From: Deltaproteobacteria bacterium
GTDB taxonomy: Bacteria > Desulfobacterota > Binatia > Binatales > Binataceae
Assembly: GCA_027317185.1 (NCBI GenBank)
Contig: DAHVFB010000048.1
Span: forward strand, 1-27,396
Length of the DNA stretch: 27,396 bases
Reading direction: 5' to 3'
Part shown: in pieces, positions 4,762 through 10,117 of the stretch
Layout: each line of letters begins with the position of its first letter
Position numbering within the stretch: the stretch's first letter is position 1
Made by a program: the position numbers and the translations under genes
Notes under the pieces: model-generated
What the model saw: the letters and a program-made list of their open reading frames with translations, nothing else
Told to the model about the DNA's origin: nothing
The model's database searches: none

Positions 4762-6150
4762 TTATTTGCCGATGCAGAACTCGCGGAAGATAACATCGAG
4801 CACGTCTTCCGAGTCCACCGCGCCGGTAATCGCCGTCAGCGCCTCGGATGCGAGGGTCACCTCGACCGCGACAATTTCGGGCGGCATGCCGTCGAGCGCC
4901 GCCTGCCGCGCCGATCGCAGCAGTTCGATTGCCCGGGCCAGCGCCTCGCGATGGCGTTCGCGTGAAATCGCCACCGTGTCGGTCAGTCCCTCGCCAGTGG
5001 CCGCTTCAATCTGATGAAGAATCGCATCGCGAAGCTCGTCCACTCCCTGCGCGCGCAGGGCCGAAAACCGAATTATCGGCGCGGTCACGCCGCGATCATT
5101 AAACTGTCTCTCGCTCGCCGAGGGCGGCAGATCCGATTTATTGAGCAGCGCGATACCTGCCCGATTCGCCAGCAGTTCCATCACCCGGAAATCATCCGCT
5201 TGAAGCGCTTCAGAGGAATCGAACACCGCGATCAGCAGGTCGGCGTCGCGGGCGCGTTCGAGCGCGCGCTCGATACCAATCCGCTCGACCTGATCGCCCG
5301 CTTCACGGATCCCGGCCGTGTCCTGCAACACCACCGGGTAACCGCCAAGCTGGAGAGTATCCTCGATCACGTCGCGCGTGGTGCCGGGTATCGGAGTGAC
5401 GATCGCGCGTTCGATACCGAGCATCAGGTTAAGGATGCTCGACTTGCCCACGTTGGGACGCCCGATAATCGCCGCCCGAATGCCCTCGCGGGCGATTCGT
5501 CCGCGATCGAAGGTCGCGTGCAGCGCCGCAACGTCCTCGATCAGCGCTTCAATCTCCGCCGCGATCTGAGCGCGCGAGGGCAGCTTCAGGTCCTCGTCGG
5601 AAAAATCGATCTCGGCTTCCAGATGGGCGCGAATCGCCAGCACCTGGCCGCGCAGACCGTCGACGCGAACAGCCAGCGCACCGTTAAGCTGCCCCAGCGC
5701 CAGCGTCAGCGCCCGCTCGCCGCGCGCCTCGATCAGATCGCGAATCGCTTCGGCCTCAGTCAAATCGATGCGCCCGTTCAAAAATGCCCGCCGGGTGAAT
5801 TCGCCGCGCTCAGCCAGCCGCGCGCCAGCCGCGACCGCCAGTCCGGCGACGCGTCGTATCAGGTAGGCGCCGCCATGGCAGTGCAGCTCCGCAACATCCT
5901 CGCCGGTGAAGCTTTTCGGCTGCGGAAAGAAGACCGCCATTGCGCGATCGATACCCGCGCCGCCGCGCGGATCGCGAATTTCGCCCAGCCGCAGCACGCG
6001 CGCCGCAGCACCATTCGGGATGGCGCCGCCGAGCGGGGTCCAGATCAGCTTGACGATACTGAAGGCCGCGGGCCCCGAGAGCCGCACGATACCGACCGCC
6101 CCGGTTCCGGGCGGCGTTATCGGCGCGACGATAGTATCTTCGAAGTACAT
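4762..6150 (-). CDS. mnmE: tRNA modification GTPase MnmE/TrmE
   Basis: 462 aa. It has a G-domain (GRPNVGKSSILN, DTAGIRE) and the hallmark C-terminal CIGK tetrapeptide. Confidence 0.93.
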   Translation of the reverse strand: MYFEDTIVAPITPPGTGAVGIVRLSGPAAFSIVKLIWTPLGGAIPNGAAARVLRLGEIRDPRGGAGIDRAMAVFFPQPKSFTGEDVAELHCHGGAYLIRRVAGLAVAAGARLAERGEFTRRAFLNGRIDLTEAEAIRDLIEARGERALTLALGQLNGALAVRVDGLRGQVLAIRAHLEAEIDFSDEDLKLPSRAQIAAEIEALIEDVAALHATFDRGRIAREGIRAAIIGRPNVGKSSILNLMLGIERAIVTPIPGTTRDVIEDTLQLGGYPVVLQDTAGIREAGDQVERIGIERALERARDADLLIAVFDSSEALQADDFRVMELLANRAGIALLNKSDLPPSASERQFNDRGVTAPIIRFSALRAQGVDELRDAILHQIEAATGEGLTDTVAISRERHREALARAIELLRSARQAALDGMPPEIVAVEVTLASEALTAITGAVDSEDVLDVIFREFCIGK

Positions 6151-6428
6151 TGCAGAGTGGATTGTCCGGCGCGGATCGGCCGGACGTATGACGATTCAGT
6201 TTGATCCAGCCGCCGGCGCAGGGTAATTTTGCGTTCCATTGTAATGTTGCCGGGGCCGCTTGCGAAATCGAGCTGAGCTGGCAATCGTTGGTAGTCGCTC
6301 CGGGTATTCGCTCCATCTTAAAACCCACGATCGGATGGCCGCGCGAGTTCGCCGCGGACCTGCGCCGGAGAAAATTCGCATCCCGAGAGCTTGCCCGCTC
6401 TGGCCGGGTATGGTTCGATGGCGAGCAC

Positions 6429-6456
6429 TGCGAAACGAACAAAAGTCTGATATAAA
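6429..6456 (+). promoter_or_regulatory. Candidate sigma70-type promoter for rpmH/rnpA (TGCGAA-16 nt-TATAAA), overlapping the near-direct repeat AAAAGTCTGA/AAAAGTCAGA
   Basis: Hexamers with a 16-nt spacer lie ~45-60 nt upstream of the rnpA/rpmH starts. This is sequence inspection only. Confidence 0.25.
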
Positions 6457-6500
6457 AGTCAGAATACAACTTGCCGGCCGTCTGAGCCGGAGCGTGAAAA

Positions 6501-7031
6501 TTGGCCTTAACTGATGAAAAGGACTTATCAACCCCACAATCGGCGACGAAAACGAACCCACGGCTTTCTGGCGCGAATGGCGACGCCGGGAGGGCGGGCG
6601 GTGATAAAACGCCGCCGCAACAAGGGCCGCAAGCGGCTGGCGATATCGATTCCGCCGAAGCAGCCCGGCTAGGCCGGCGGCCCGAGAGTTTTAGCTCTGC
6701 CGATCGTATACGCCGGCGAGCAGAATTTCTCCGGCTCCAACGCTACGGAATTCGAGTACAGAGCGATCATTTCGTCCTGTATGCAATACGTTTTGCGGCG
6801 GGCGAACCCTCGCGGCTGGGAATCACGGTATCGCGGCAGGTTGGCCAGGCGGTCGTCCGTAATCGTATCAAGCGGCGCGTGCGCGAGTGTTTTCGGCGCT
6901 CGATTAGATCGACGATACCTGCCGGAATCGGTATGGTGGTGATTGCCAGGAGGGGTGCCGGAACGCTCGATTTTGCGACGATACGTTCCGAGCTTGGAAC
7001 AGCAGCCTTCAGAATCGGTCAAAACCTTTGA
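6501..7031 (+). CDS. rnpA: Ribonuclease P protein component RnpA (TTG start; N-terminal ~60 aa overlaps rpmH in another frame)
   Basis: The conserved RnpA core is [26 protein letters not shown]...[27 protein letters not shown]. There is no ATG/GTG/TTG in frame between the rpmH stop and this conserved core. The only canonical in-frame start is TTG 6501, with GGAG 8 nt upstream. Confidence 0.75.
6514..6672 (+). CDS. rpmH: 50S ribosomal protein L34
   Basis: 52-aa [55 protein letters not shown], a near-universal L34 sequence. It is below the ORF-track size cut-off, so it was found by manual translation. Confidence 0.92.
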
Positions 7032-7330
7032 ATATCGACTCAAATGCGTCCTGCCCTTACGTGCGATCCTTGACCGGTCGCGTCGCGTGCGCGATCGCGT
7101 TGTCGACGCTCAGTTTATACCGCATTATTGTCTCGCCACTTTTGAGCGCCGTGCTTGGTCATGCATGCCGTTTCGATCCGACCTGCTCGGTTTACGCCCA
7201 TGATGCGATTGCGAACCATGGCGTTGCGCGCGGCGCCTGGCTGGCGATCAGGCGACTTTTGCGCTGCCGTCCGGGCGGCGGATGGGGCTACGATCCCGCG
7301 CCGCATACGGGATCAATCGCACAGCTCTGA
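7028..7330 (+). CDS. yidD: Membrane protein insertion efficiency factor YidD
   Basis: [11 protein letters not shown]...[17 protein letters not shown] matches the YidD/hemolytic-domain signature (CRF.P[ST]CS.Y...RC[HR]P.GG.G.DP.P). The TTG 7028 overlaps the rnpA stop (TTGA). An alternative GTG start lies at 7061. Confidence 0.85.
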
Positions 7331-7340
7331 CGGAGATTAA

Positions 7341-8996
7341 TTGGATTCTCGCACATTGATTGTCGTCCTGCTTTCGATCGGCCTCATCTTCGCCTATCAA
7401 GAGTTGGTTCTGAAGCGGCTGTATCCGCCGCACAAACAAGTCGAGCAGGCGCAGAGTATCGCCAGCCCGGAGGGCGCCGGACCGCAATCGGATGCGGCCG
7501 GCGGCGGATCGTCCGCCCAGATTGCCGCCAATTCGATGATCGGCGCCGCGAACCTCGCGCCGCGCACGATCGAGATCGACACCCACCTGTATCAGGCGGT
7601 CCTGACCACCAGGGGCGGACGGTTGCTCAGTCTGCGGCTGAAGGACTTTCGCGAAACCGCCGCGCCGGGCAGTCCCTGGTACGAGATGGTACCGACTGCG
7701 CCCGGCGGCAAGCTGCCGTTGGGATTAGTGGTCAATCGCGCCGGTACGACGCTGACCGATTCCGCGCTCGATTATGCGACCGACGCGCCCGCGCGGCTCG
7801 ATGCCACTGCGGGACACCCGGTAACCATCACCTTCCGCGCGAAAACCCACGATGGCCTCGCAGTCGAGAAATCCCTGATTTTTCGTGATGACAGCTACGC
7901 CTTCGACCTCGATGCCGCGATCACGGGCGAGACCACCGGCCTCACCCAGACCGGCTTCGGCATCAGTCAGCCGCTGACCAAGCATGCCGGCTACGCCGAC
8001 ATCCCGGAGCTGCAGGCCGAGGTTCAGGGTAAGACGCTCACCGAGCGAGAAAAGGCGCTGGAAAAGGGCGCGGCGCCCGCCAGCGGCCAGATCACCTATG
8101 CCGGCTTCGGCGATCGGTACTTCCTCTCCGTTTATCTGCCGATTGCCCCAAACAGCGGCACGCTGCAGATGAGCTATGGCGGCGATGAAGCGCAGGCTCG
8201 AATTCTTTTCGACCGCACGGCCAAAATCAGCACGGCCGTTTACATGGGTCCCAAGAAGCTCGAGATCCTGGAGCAGGTCAATCCGTCGCTGAGCAAGGCC
8301 ATCGATTTCGGCTATCTCGGGATAATCGCGCTGCCGCTGCTGCGTACATTAAAATTATTTTATTATGTCGGCCACAATTACGGGATTGCTATTATCCTGC
8401 TGACTTTGGTGGTGCGGGCGCTTACGCTGCCGATGTCGATCAAAGGGCAGCGCTCGATGATGCGGATGCAGCGGCTACAGCCCCAGGTGGAACGGATTCG
8501 GGAGAAATTCAAGGACGATCAGGAGCGGCTTAATCGCGAAATGGTCGATCTGTACAAACGCAATCACGTTAACCCGCTCGGCGGATGCCTGCCGATGGTG
8601 ATCCAACTACCGATCCTGTATGGGCTGTACGAGGCCTTTCTGAACGCTTTCGAGCTGCGGCAGGCGCCGTTTATCGGATGGATCAGGGATCTTTCGGCGC
8701 CCGATTGTCTAACCATACCGGGGATGCCGGCGCTGCCGTGGACCGCCTGTCACGGCATCCCTGTGCTGGTAATTCTGCTAGCGATAACCTCGTTATCGCA
8801 GCAGTGGCTCTCGCCCAAGCAGCCCGACCCCAATCAGCAGAAAATGATGATGTACATGCCGGTTGCATTCAGTCTAATCTTCATTAATCTGCCAGCCGGG
8901 CTTACGTTGTACTATTTATCGTCAAACGTGCTCGGTATTTTGCAACAGGTTTTTCTAAACTACGAATTTAAACAGTACACCCCCGCGACGACATGA
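7341..8996 (+). CDS. yidC: Membrane protein insertase YidC
   Basis: 551 aa. It has an N-terminal TM anchor, a large periplasmic domain, and the conserved C-terminal TM core (…PLLRTL…GCLPMVIQLPILYGLY…YYLSSNVLGILQQ). Confidence 0.92.
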   Translation: MDSRTLIVVLLSIGLIFAYQELVLKRLYPPHKQVEQAQSIASPEGAGPQSDAAGGGSSAQIAANSMIGAANLAPRTIEIDTHLYQAVLTTRGGRLLSLRLKDFRETAAPGSPWYEMVPTAPGGKLPLGLVVNRAGTTLTDSALDYATDAPARLDATAGHPVTITFRAKTHDGLAVEKSLIFRDDSYAFDLDAAITGETTGLTQTGFGISQPLTKHAGYADIPELQAEVQGKTLTEREKALEKGAAPASGQITYAGFGDRYFLSVYLPIAPNSGTLQMSYGGDEAQARILFDRTAKISTAVYMGPKKLEILEQVNPSLSKAIDFGYLGIIALPLLRTLKLFYYVGHNYGIAIILLTLVVRALTLPMSIKGQRSMMRMQRLQPQVERIREKFKDDQERLNREMVDLYKRNHVNPLGGCLPMVIQLPILYGLYEAFLNAFELRQAPFIGWIRDLSAPDCLTIPGMPALPWTACHGIPVLVILLAITSLSQQWLSPKQPDPNQQKMMMYMPVAFSLIFINLPAGLTLYYLSSNVLGILQQVFLNYEFKQYTPATT

Positions 8997-10117
8997 GTGC
9001 CAGGATTTCGATCGAAAAAACCGCAGCTTCAGTCGAAGACGCCATTCGGCAGGCGCTTGAAGAACTCGGCGCACATGAGGACGATGTCATTATCGAGGTG
9101 CTGAGTACCCCGCGATCCGGGGTGCTGGGGCTTGGCGCGCGACAGGCCAAGGTCCGAGTCACCCGTCGGCCACCCGAGATTGCGCGCAGCGAGGCGCAGT
9201 CGCCACCGCCTGCGCCGCCACCGCAACGCACGCCCGATCAACCACGCCGTCCCTTGCCGCAGCGCCAGGAAACGAGCCGTCAGCCTGAGAATCAATCGCT
9301 TCCGCGTCCCGAAGAACGGCGTCCCGAAGAAAGACGGCCTCCGCGCCAGGAGCATCGGCAGAACCGTTCCGATGATCAGCGGCCTCGCGACGATCAGCGG
9401 CCTCGCGACGAACGGCGGCCTCGCGACGAACGGCGGCCACGTCCCGAGCGTGCGCCGCGAAACGATTCGCCAACGCCATCGCCGGAGCGTCCGCCGCGCG
9501 ATGAGGAACGCGGAAGTGAATCGGGATTGCCCGACAATCGACCTAATCTGGACCGCGCGGCGCAAACCCGTGAAGCGATCGAAGCGCTGACGCGCATCCT
9601 CGATCTGATGGGCGAGCGATGCGTGGTGGCCGAAGGCGACCAGGATCCGGAAAATATTGAACTCGAGATTAAGGGTGATGGCTCCGGGATCCTTATCGGC
9701 CGTCATGGTCAGACGCTGGATGCGCTCGAATACATCATCAACCGGATTCTCGCCCGGCGGGTGAAAGAGGCGCTCAACGTCGCGCTGGACACGGAGTCAT
9801 ATCGCGCCCGCCGCCGTCAGCAGATTCATCGGATGGCGCTTTCGATGGGTGAGCAGGCCAAACGCGAACATGAGACGGTGCACCTCGAGCCGATGCCGCC
9901 GCGTGAGCGCCGAATCGTCCATCTGGCGCTCAAAGACGATCCTTTGATAACCACCCGTTCCGCCGGCGAGGGCTACCTGCGCACGATCGAAATCGTTCCG
10001 GTCGGAGGTGGTGCGCCGCGTGAGGGCCATTCGCGCGATCGGAATCGTGAGCATAACCGCGAACCGGCGATTGGCGAGCAGGGCGGCTTCAAACACGGCC
10101 AGAAACGGATCATCTAA
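8993..10117 (+). CDS. khpB: Jag/KhpB RNA-binding protein (Jag_N + KH + R3H) with a ~130-aa Arg/Pro/Glu/Asp-rich repetitive insert
   Basis: The Jag N-domain is MSARISIEKTAASVEDAIRQALEELG. A KH-like region follows (ENIELEIKGDGSGILIGRHGQTLDALEYIINRI), then an R3H region (RRIVHLALKDDPLITTRSAGEGYLRTIEI). Its start overlaps the yidC stop (ATGA). It has the canonical position after yidC. Confidence 0.85.
   Translation: MSARISIEKTAASVEDAIRQALEELGAHEDDVIIEVLSTPRSGVLGLGARQAKVRVTRRPPEIARSEAQSPPPAPPPQRTPDQPRRPLPQRQETSRQPENQSLPRPEERRPEERRPPRQEHRQNRSDDQRPRDDQRPRDERRPRDERRPRPERAPRNDSPTPSPERPPRDEERGSESGLPDNRPNLDRAAQTREAIEALTRILDLMGERCVVAEGDQDPENIELEIKGDGSGILIGRHGQTLDALEYIINRILARRVKEALNVALDTESYRARRRQQIHRMALSMGEQAKREHETVHLEPMPPRERRIVHLALKDDPLITTRSAGEGYLRTIEIVPVGGGAPREGHSRDRNREHNREPAIGEQGGFKHGQKRII
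9374..9445 (+). repeat. Four tandem 18-bp coding repeats (GATCAGCGGCCTCGCGAC x2, GAACGGCGGCCTCGCGAC, degenerate 4th) inside jag/khpB
   Basis: Direct inspection shows they encode DQRPRD-DQRPRD-ERRPRD-ERRPRP. Adjacent 15-bp repeats encode PEERR x2 (9309-9340). Confidence 0.8.

Follow-up and report, generated by a model that had tools for sequence, protein, structure and literature searches.

Where does translation of rnpA, which encodes the RNase P protein, begin when no conventional start codon is found at the stop of the preceding gene rpmH or a few codons downstream of it? This question is raised by the rpmH-rnpA locus of an uncultured soil bacterium of the family Binataceae, which we studied within a stretch of 27,396 nucleotides (hereafter the window). 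The original prediction for this locus was that rpmH, encoding ribosomal protein L34, is wholly embedded out of frame in the 5' part of a longer rnpA, as in Thermus. The Thermus pair, in which rpmH is fully nested in rnpA and the two starts lie 4 nt apart in the sequence AUGGAUG with one GGAGG, is the only described case of this arrangement, and also the only described bacterial essential gene that is fully nested out of frame with adjacent competing starts (PMC9841429, 2022). If true, an upstream rnpA start would couple RNase P protein synthesis directly to competition with L34 initiation, and an independent origin of such nesting in a second lineage would show it to be a recurrent solution.

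Layout of the locus and of the predicted protein

On the forward strand of the window, rpmH runs from ATG 6514 to the TAG at 6670–6672 and encodes 52 amino acids, of which residues 1–43 are spanned by Pfam family PF00468 (E = 1.1e-23; 83.3 bits against a gathering cut-off of 25). The long rnpA open reading frame extends on the same strand from TTG 6501 to the TGA at 7029–7031 (176 codons plus stop), comprising an extension of ~60 amino acids followed by a canonical RnpA core. It lies in the +2 frame relative to rpmH, and the rpmH coding sequence at 6514–6672 falls entirely within 6501–7031, so that all coordinates of the predicted out-of-frame nesting hold. The RNase P protein domain (PF00825, Ribonuclease_P) covers residues 64–170, at 6690–7010 on the forward strand (E = 5.8e-27; 94.3 bits against a cut-off of 22.3), includes the RNR motif and starts 3' of the rpmH stop.

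The rnpA frame is closed by an in-frame TGA at 6495–6497, two codons 5' of the proposed initiation codon TTG (6501–6503), which stands at -13 relative to the rpmH ATG. An open reading frame scan agrees with the prediction that this TTG is the sole ATG, GTG or TTG in the rnpA frame between TGA 6495 and the core. Where relatives have a conventional rnpA start, ATG or TTG, the window has GAG (Glu62, 6684–6686) according to the locus comparison, and at 6669, where relatives read TTG(A), the window codon is CTA. The conventional coupled arrangement, with a canonical rnpA start at the rpmH stop or a few codons 3' of it, is thus not found in the window. The neighbourhood is otherwise the usual origin-proximal cluster, with mnmG, rsmG and mnmE on the reverse strand and rpmH-rnpA-yidD-yidC-jag on the forward strand. 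The genome had been described as high-GC; the window itself measures 59.9% GC.

Annotators disagree on the rnpA start at this locus (128 versus 176 amino acids). The GenBank entry MBF6568453.1 ('ribonuclease P protein component', Candidatus Binataceae bacterium) is 128 amino acids long, and its N-terminus, MDSAEAARL, corresponds to the sequence from the in-frame ATC at 6645–6647 onward. That protein and the exact 176-residue sequence were both placed on a single contig of 140.6 kb. For relatives, most JGI-style gene calls are long RnpA forms of 177–250 amino acids.

The 61-residue extension had been characterized as rich in Arg, Pro and Gly; it is instead rich in Ala, Gly, Asp and Pro and has a net charge of 0, compared with +15 for the core. 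In an AlphaFold model built on a 20-sequence alignment, pLDDT was ~40 for residues 1–55 and ~90 for residues 65–176. Variation in the extension tracks the third codon positions of L34, and the extension has relaxed constraint, in-frame indels and no predicted structure, as in Thermus. By analogy with the Thermus extension, it appears to behave as a passenger peptide. Feltens and colleagues reportedly found in 2003 that the Thermus RnpA extension is dispensable in vitro.

RnpA starts among Binataceae relatives and controls

To compare this locus with its relatives, we took 80 loci from GTDB species genomes and a further 80 metagenome loci picked by RnpA-core-only patterns, which makes the latter unbiased as to overlap; at least 11 of the metagenome loci among the matches listed are of Binataceae type. 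In each locus, rpmH and the RnpA core were placed by phmmer on stop-to-stop translations. Binataceae-type L34 was defined as a gene of 156 nt with the usual ending IPPKQPG or minor variants of it, which gave 33 loci including the window.

In 22 of the 33 loci, among them relatives L013, L005, L014 and L020, rnpA has a canonical start that overlaps or follows the rpmH stop. These starts take the form of a TTG, ATG or GTG overlapping the TGA stop, a GTG at +164, or an ATG or TTG at +170 to +179, the last yielding the N-terminus M-S-F-x-x-x-D-R-L. Twelve of these 22 loci keep an open +2 frame together with an upstream start, and the other ten do not: the overlap frame contains TAA in four (L013, L018, L025, L103), the upstream start is absent in three (L005, L014, L102), and rnpA is in a different frame in three (L020, L086, L093). 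In the clade that has lost this frame, CTG stands in place of the -13 TTG or the TTG is shifted out of frame, and the adjoining TGGCC is kept. In relatives, the core lies 11 to 38 nt from the rpmH stop, in frame throughout.

A canonical downstream start is missing from the remaining 11 of the 33 loci (the window, L001, L002, L004, L007, L009, L012, L017, L083, L084 and L106). All 11 have an upstream start and a +2 frame that is open across rpmH, and in ten of them a TTG stands exactly at -13. Across the 33 Binataceae-type loci, absence of a downstream start is significantly associated with an intact upstream open reading frame (Fisher one-sided p = 0.007), and none of these loci was seen to have neither start (0/11 among those without a downstream start). 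In a rough neighbour-joining tree, the 11 loci are scattered over at least six branches, with conventional relatives in between; counted by lineage, the association becomes about 7/0 versus 6/5 (p ~ 0.05), an estimate from that rough tree. An alignment of homologues had been proposed as the check on the original prediction, and its outcome is divided: the upstream open reading frame is intact wherever the downstream start is missing, but some relatives carry stops in the overlap frame. Within Binataceae, the arrangement is polymorphic and not a fixed trait of the clade, with two thirds of the relatives being conventional.

How much these counts say depends on how often the overlap frame is open by chance. 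Among unrelated control loci whose rpmH has a GC3 of at least 0.7, the +2 frame was stop-free over rpmH in 24 of 32. The +1 frame over rpmH was never open because ATGAAA contains TGA. Under a synonymous-recoding null, the probability of an open +2 frame was 0.23 when codon usage was that of the genome and 0.45 when it was pooled from rpmH genes, and that of an open +1 frame was 0. At codons where a third-position T would risk a stop in the +2 frame, T was used at 0 of 74 sites in the 11 loci, compared with 17.5% at other sites of the same genes and 12.7% at equivalent risk sites in ordinary genes of the window; in the 5' half of rpmH, the count was 0 of 27 (P = 0.026). We had considered the recoding null and the avoidance of T as strong evidence and downgraded both, as the same bias is seen in unrelated GC-rich rpmH controls, where T occupies 4.3% of the risk sites. 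GC-rich genomes thus come by an open +2 frame easily, and openness of 11/11 loci is marginal evidence, because 0.75^11 is approximately 0.04.

Absence of a canonical start 3' of rpmH is a different matter. The automated procedure counted it in 2 of 55 controls, or ~5 after hand inspection of offset alignments, versus 11 of 33 Binataceae-type loci. Among loci whose rnpA start lies apart from rpmH, 11 of 14 of Binataceae type have kept the +2 frame, compared with 15 of 37 controls. What is informative is that the downstream start is missing and that its absence coincides without exception with an intact upstream open reading frame. The case for nesting is good but not closed.

A feature of L34 itself was also observed in these loci. 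Binataceae L34 has a conserved C-terminal tail of eight amino acids, S/T-I-P-P-K-Q-P-G (SIPPKQPG at 6646–6669 in the window; also L001–L020 and L081–L086), which is not present in typical L34 proteins of 44–46 amino acids; other Binatia carry VPPKRART. Because of the tail, rpmH ends inside the region that would otherwise hold the start of rnpA.

Initiation signals and alternative explanations

The Shine-Dalgarno (SD)-like GGAG at 6489–6492 on the forward strand lies 8 nt 5' of TTG 6501 and 21 nt 5' of ATG 6514, in agreement with the positions originally predicted. Its proposed role as the SD of rnpA fared less evenly. The GGAG-TTG spacing equals that of SD-like motifs at other genes of the window, roughly half of which have one, but no GGAG was found upstream of the -13 TTG in the relatives compared, and its first two bases belong to the 3' arm of a GC-rich hairpin (CCGGC-N7-GCCGG, 6474–6490, forward strand) in the centroid fold of the rpmH/rnpA leader. 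What is conserved in relatives is an A-rich stretch followed by TTGGCC-N7-GATG. In the same centroid fold, the region from ~6491 to 6560 is unpaired, which fits SD-independent initiation at both codons. No SD precedes the rpmH ATG, whether the relatives are nested or conventional; since this SD-less rpmH start is family-wide regardless of nesting, the puzzle of how L34 is translated, which the nesting was thought to raise, is not created by it.

Searches of the leader for other elements were negative: Rfam returned no match for 6100–7100 at E <= 1, a promoter and terminator scan found no sigma-70-like promoter on the forward strand and no terminator, and folding of the whole leader was no better than that of shuffled sequences. 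A local GC-rich hairpin nonetheless recurs 20–45 nt 5' of rpmH (L001–L019 and L081–L085; 6446–6463 and 6474–6490 in the window). Its sequence varies while its pairing is kept (GGCTCG-GCA-CGAGCC, CGAGG-ACGAG-CCTCG, GCCAGA-TCT-CTGGC), and it is often followed 3' by a GAATAC-like and A-rich sequence and then by the conserved TTGGCC. This hairpin could be a candidate stabiliser of the mRNA 5' end or an L34 leader element. We also considered coupling through a leader mini-ORF (start GTG 6494 or ATT 6500) that ends in the cTGATG at 6512–6516, and rejected it because it is not conserved, relatives reading CCGATG; judged from these sequences, the TGA overlapping the rpmH ATG is probably incidental.

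We consider it likely from the comparison of loci that RnpA is initiated at TTG 6501 and read in the +2 frame through rpmH into the core. The conventional start at or just after the rpmH stop would have been lost from rnpA of this Binataceae genome. The product would be a protein of 176 amino acids, with ~60 disordered, charge-neutral residues dictated by the codons of L34 and then a basic core of 115 residues, and L34 would be made from ATG 6514 on the shared mRNA. With the TTG and ATG sites in one unstructured A/T-rich stretch, initiation complexes on them may be mutually exclusive. The weak TTG, with its GGAG partly buried in the hairpin, would then yield little RnpA and the ATG much L34, and synthesis of the two proteins would thereby be linked, as proposed for Thermus. 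As to its origin, the downstream start could have become dispensable because a GC-rich rpmH usually has no stop in its +2 frame and an upstream TTG is in frame, and it may have been lost repeatedly and independently on this route. The original proposal of nesting is the best-supported explanation, with the start itself deduced from the comparison, but an open frame by itself is common in GC-rich controls.

The alternative already named in the original prediction is that RnpA starts at a downstream non-canonical codon (ATC 6645, ATA 6708 or another) and that the long open reading frame is an untranslated by-product; initiation there might be performed by ribosomes terminating at the rpmH stop. 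We regard this main rival as unlikely, while noting that ATC 6645 is the start used by GenBank entry MBF6568453.1, that a downstream start is at ease with the open +2 frames of the unrelated GC-rich controls, and that inefficient initiation could suffice given a need for RnpA of ~1/130 of that for L34 in E. coli (PMC9945441). CTG-only rnpA genes near the rpmH stop in L087, L105, L131 and L150, a CTGA in L106 and L046, and the annotation of some Sphingomonas RnpA proteins by NCBI from such a CTG (P0160) point the same way, and in L106 the CTG overlapping its own TGA stop may be an alternative start. However, both predicted codons, which are in frame as was said, are specific to the window lineage: an ATC equivalent to 6645 is absent from every relative compared, ATA 6708 is likewise not conserved, and a start at the latter would cut away part of the Pfam domain. 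In the 11 loci, the stretch that separates the rpmH stop from the core has no conserved near-cognate codon. Six of the ten loci with a -13 TTG have no CTG, ATT, ATC, ATA or ACG at all in that stretch, and L083 has no near-cognate codon there (none from +100 onward). The codon aligned with the start of the relatives is GAG, CAG, CGC or TTA, each two mismatches from AUG. A downstream start also predicts loci with neither canonical start, and these were 0 of 11, though the upstream open reading frame is broken in 45% of the other loci.

The conserved TTG could also reflect another role, as a -10-like element or an rpmH initiation element. If it were kept because it belongs to a promoter or an rpmH leader element (A-rich-TTGGCC), with transcription starting downstream of it, the TTG would be off the mRNA and rnpA would be decaying or otherwise expressed. 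TAAAAT-TGG or TATAAAG-TTGG in some relatives does resemble a -10 hexamer, and TGGCC persists even where the overlap frame is broken. Against this, the scan gave no sigma-70-like site on the forward strand, many relatives (L003, L006, L009, L019) have no -10-like sequence at this position, and loci that have lost the overlap frame have also lost the first T of the TTG; nor is rnpA decaying, given an intact and strongly conserved RnpA core. We therefore hold this explanation to be very improbable, and still more so an L34-RnpA fusion, in which translation would start at ATG 6514 and shift by -1 into the rnpA frame within rpmH. Such a shift would indeed enter the +2 frame, which is open, but no X XXY YYZ slippery heptamer was seen in rpmH on visual inspection, L34 would be tied up in the fusion, and T is avoided at risk sites in the 5' half of rpmH as well, for which a late shift has no need.

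Non-canonical initiation of rnpA seems plausible in principle because other lineages have rnpA genes with probable CTG starts. The four unrelated metagenomic loci L087, L105, L131 and L150 have no ATG, GTG or TTG before the rnpA core and have CTG at the expected N-terminus, for example CTG-CCT-GCC-GAC-TTT in M-P-A-D-F-P-K-R. In L095, only ACG is available and rnpA lies in frame 0 with rpmH, directly after its TAG, where reinitiation or readthrough are possibilities.

Relation to Thermus and other rpmH-rnpA pairs

Initiation of RnpA at TTG 6501 would make Binataceae, quite likely on the comparison of sequences, an independent second lineage of the Thermus-type nested pair, in another phylum and with a somewhat different initiation geometry. 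As in Thermus thermophilus and T. filiformis, rpmH lies wholly in rnpA with the rnpA start 5' and in the same relative frame (-4 and -13 are both +2), and the RnpA N-terminal extension is long and poorly conserved, with in-frame indels 3' of rpmH. The differences lie first of all in the starts, which are two ATGs 4 nt apart in Thermus and here a TTG 13 nt 5' of an ATG. One GGAGG is shared in Thermus, whereas the GGAG in the window would serve the TTG only, is not conserved, and leaves the ATG without an SD. Thermus belongs to Deinococcota and this genome to Binatota, in a family where the arrangement is polymorphic; nesting is proven in Thermus, and the pair in the window is known from sequence alone.

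The conventional rpmH-rnpA operon of E. coli and most bacteria (PMC9945441) shares with this locus the order rpmH-rnpA-yidD-yidC-jag, a weak GTG or TTG start and an expected scarcity of RnpA relative to L34 (PMC9945441), but has its rnpA start at or after the rpmH stop, where the window has no start codon. Ambiguous AUGUG and GUGUG sites of E. coli (pqiA, tamA, narQ; PMC9841429) are alike in that close out-of-frame starts compete and the reading frames overlap. In those cases, however, the starts themselves overlap and the alternative reading frames are short, while the two starts of this locus are separated by 13 nt and each leads to an essential, conserved protein.

A comparable organization was observed in 12 Sphingomonadaceae loci (L036, L042, L046, L051, L053, L054, L057, L059, L061, L069, L070 and L078; rpmH start at ~1501–1507 in most of them), a sample that is ascertainment-biased, as the query contained the extension. 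Within this sample, all 12 loci have an ATG or GTG of the rnpA frame at -7 together with a +2 frame open across rpmH, T was used at 0 of 48 risk sites, and ~5 of the 12 have no canonical downstream start. NCBI records include long RnpA forms (P0151, Sphingomonas sp. Leaf22, 159 amino acids; P0171, S. psychrolutea, 165 amino acids) as well as short forms from a CTG overlapping the rpmH stop (P0160, P0209). The likeness to the window is an rnpA reading frame from an ATG at -7 through rpmH in +2, in some loci without a canonical downstream start. The difference is that the SD-like GGGA or GAGGA adjoins the -7 ATG, at a distance that suits the rpmH ATG rather than this one, with a CTG at the rpmH stop in some loci. 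On this sequence pattern, Sphingomonadaceae look like a third nested lineage, and we found no published description of a long-form or nested rnpA in Sphingomonas. We tentatively raise the possibility, on which we lean slightly to the doubtful side, that nesting of rpmH in rnpA is recurrent and overlooked in GC-rich bacteria, with a TTG at -13 in Binataceae and an ATG at -7 in Sphingomonadaceae. The +2 frame of rpmH is by its nature poor in stops, and the rnpA start could therefore shuttle between sites after rpmH and sites just before its ATG.

Binataceae provide a natural experiment in this respect, as relatives with and without the conventional start coexist. The coexistence of both states makes the evolutionary route testable, namely that an upstream in-frame start came first and the downstream start was lost later. 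On the practical side, public databases are inconsistent on rnpA start sites in Binataceae and Sphingomonas, with pipelines resolving such loci variously by a long open reading frame, a CTG start or an ATC start.

Further along the operon, yidD (7028–7330) begins with a TTG that overlaps the rnpA stop and is followed by yidC (7341–8996) and jag (8993–10117), all on the forward strand. Two junctions have four-base start/stop overlaps, TTGA at 7028–7031 between rnpA and yidD and ATGA at 8993–8996 between yidC and jag, both of which are typical of translational coupling. The jag product, a Jag/KhpB homologue, carries a long low-complexity repeat insert rich in Arg, Pro, Asp and Glu between its Jag_N and KH domains (9230–9500), which includes the sequence RPRDDQRPRDERRPRDERRPRPER.
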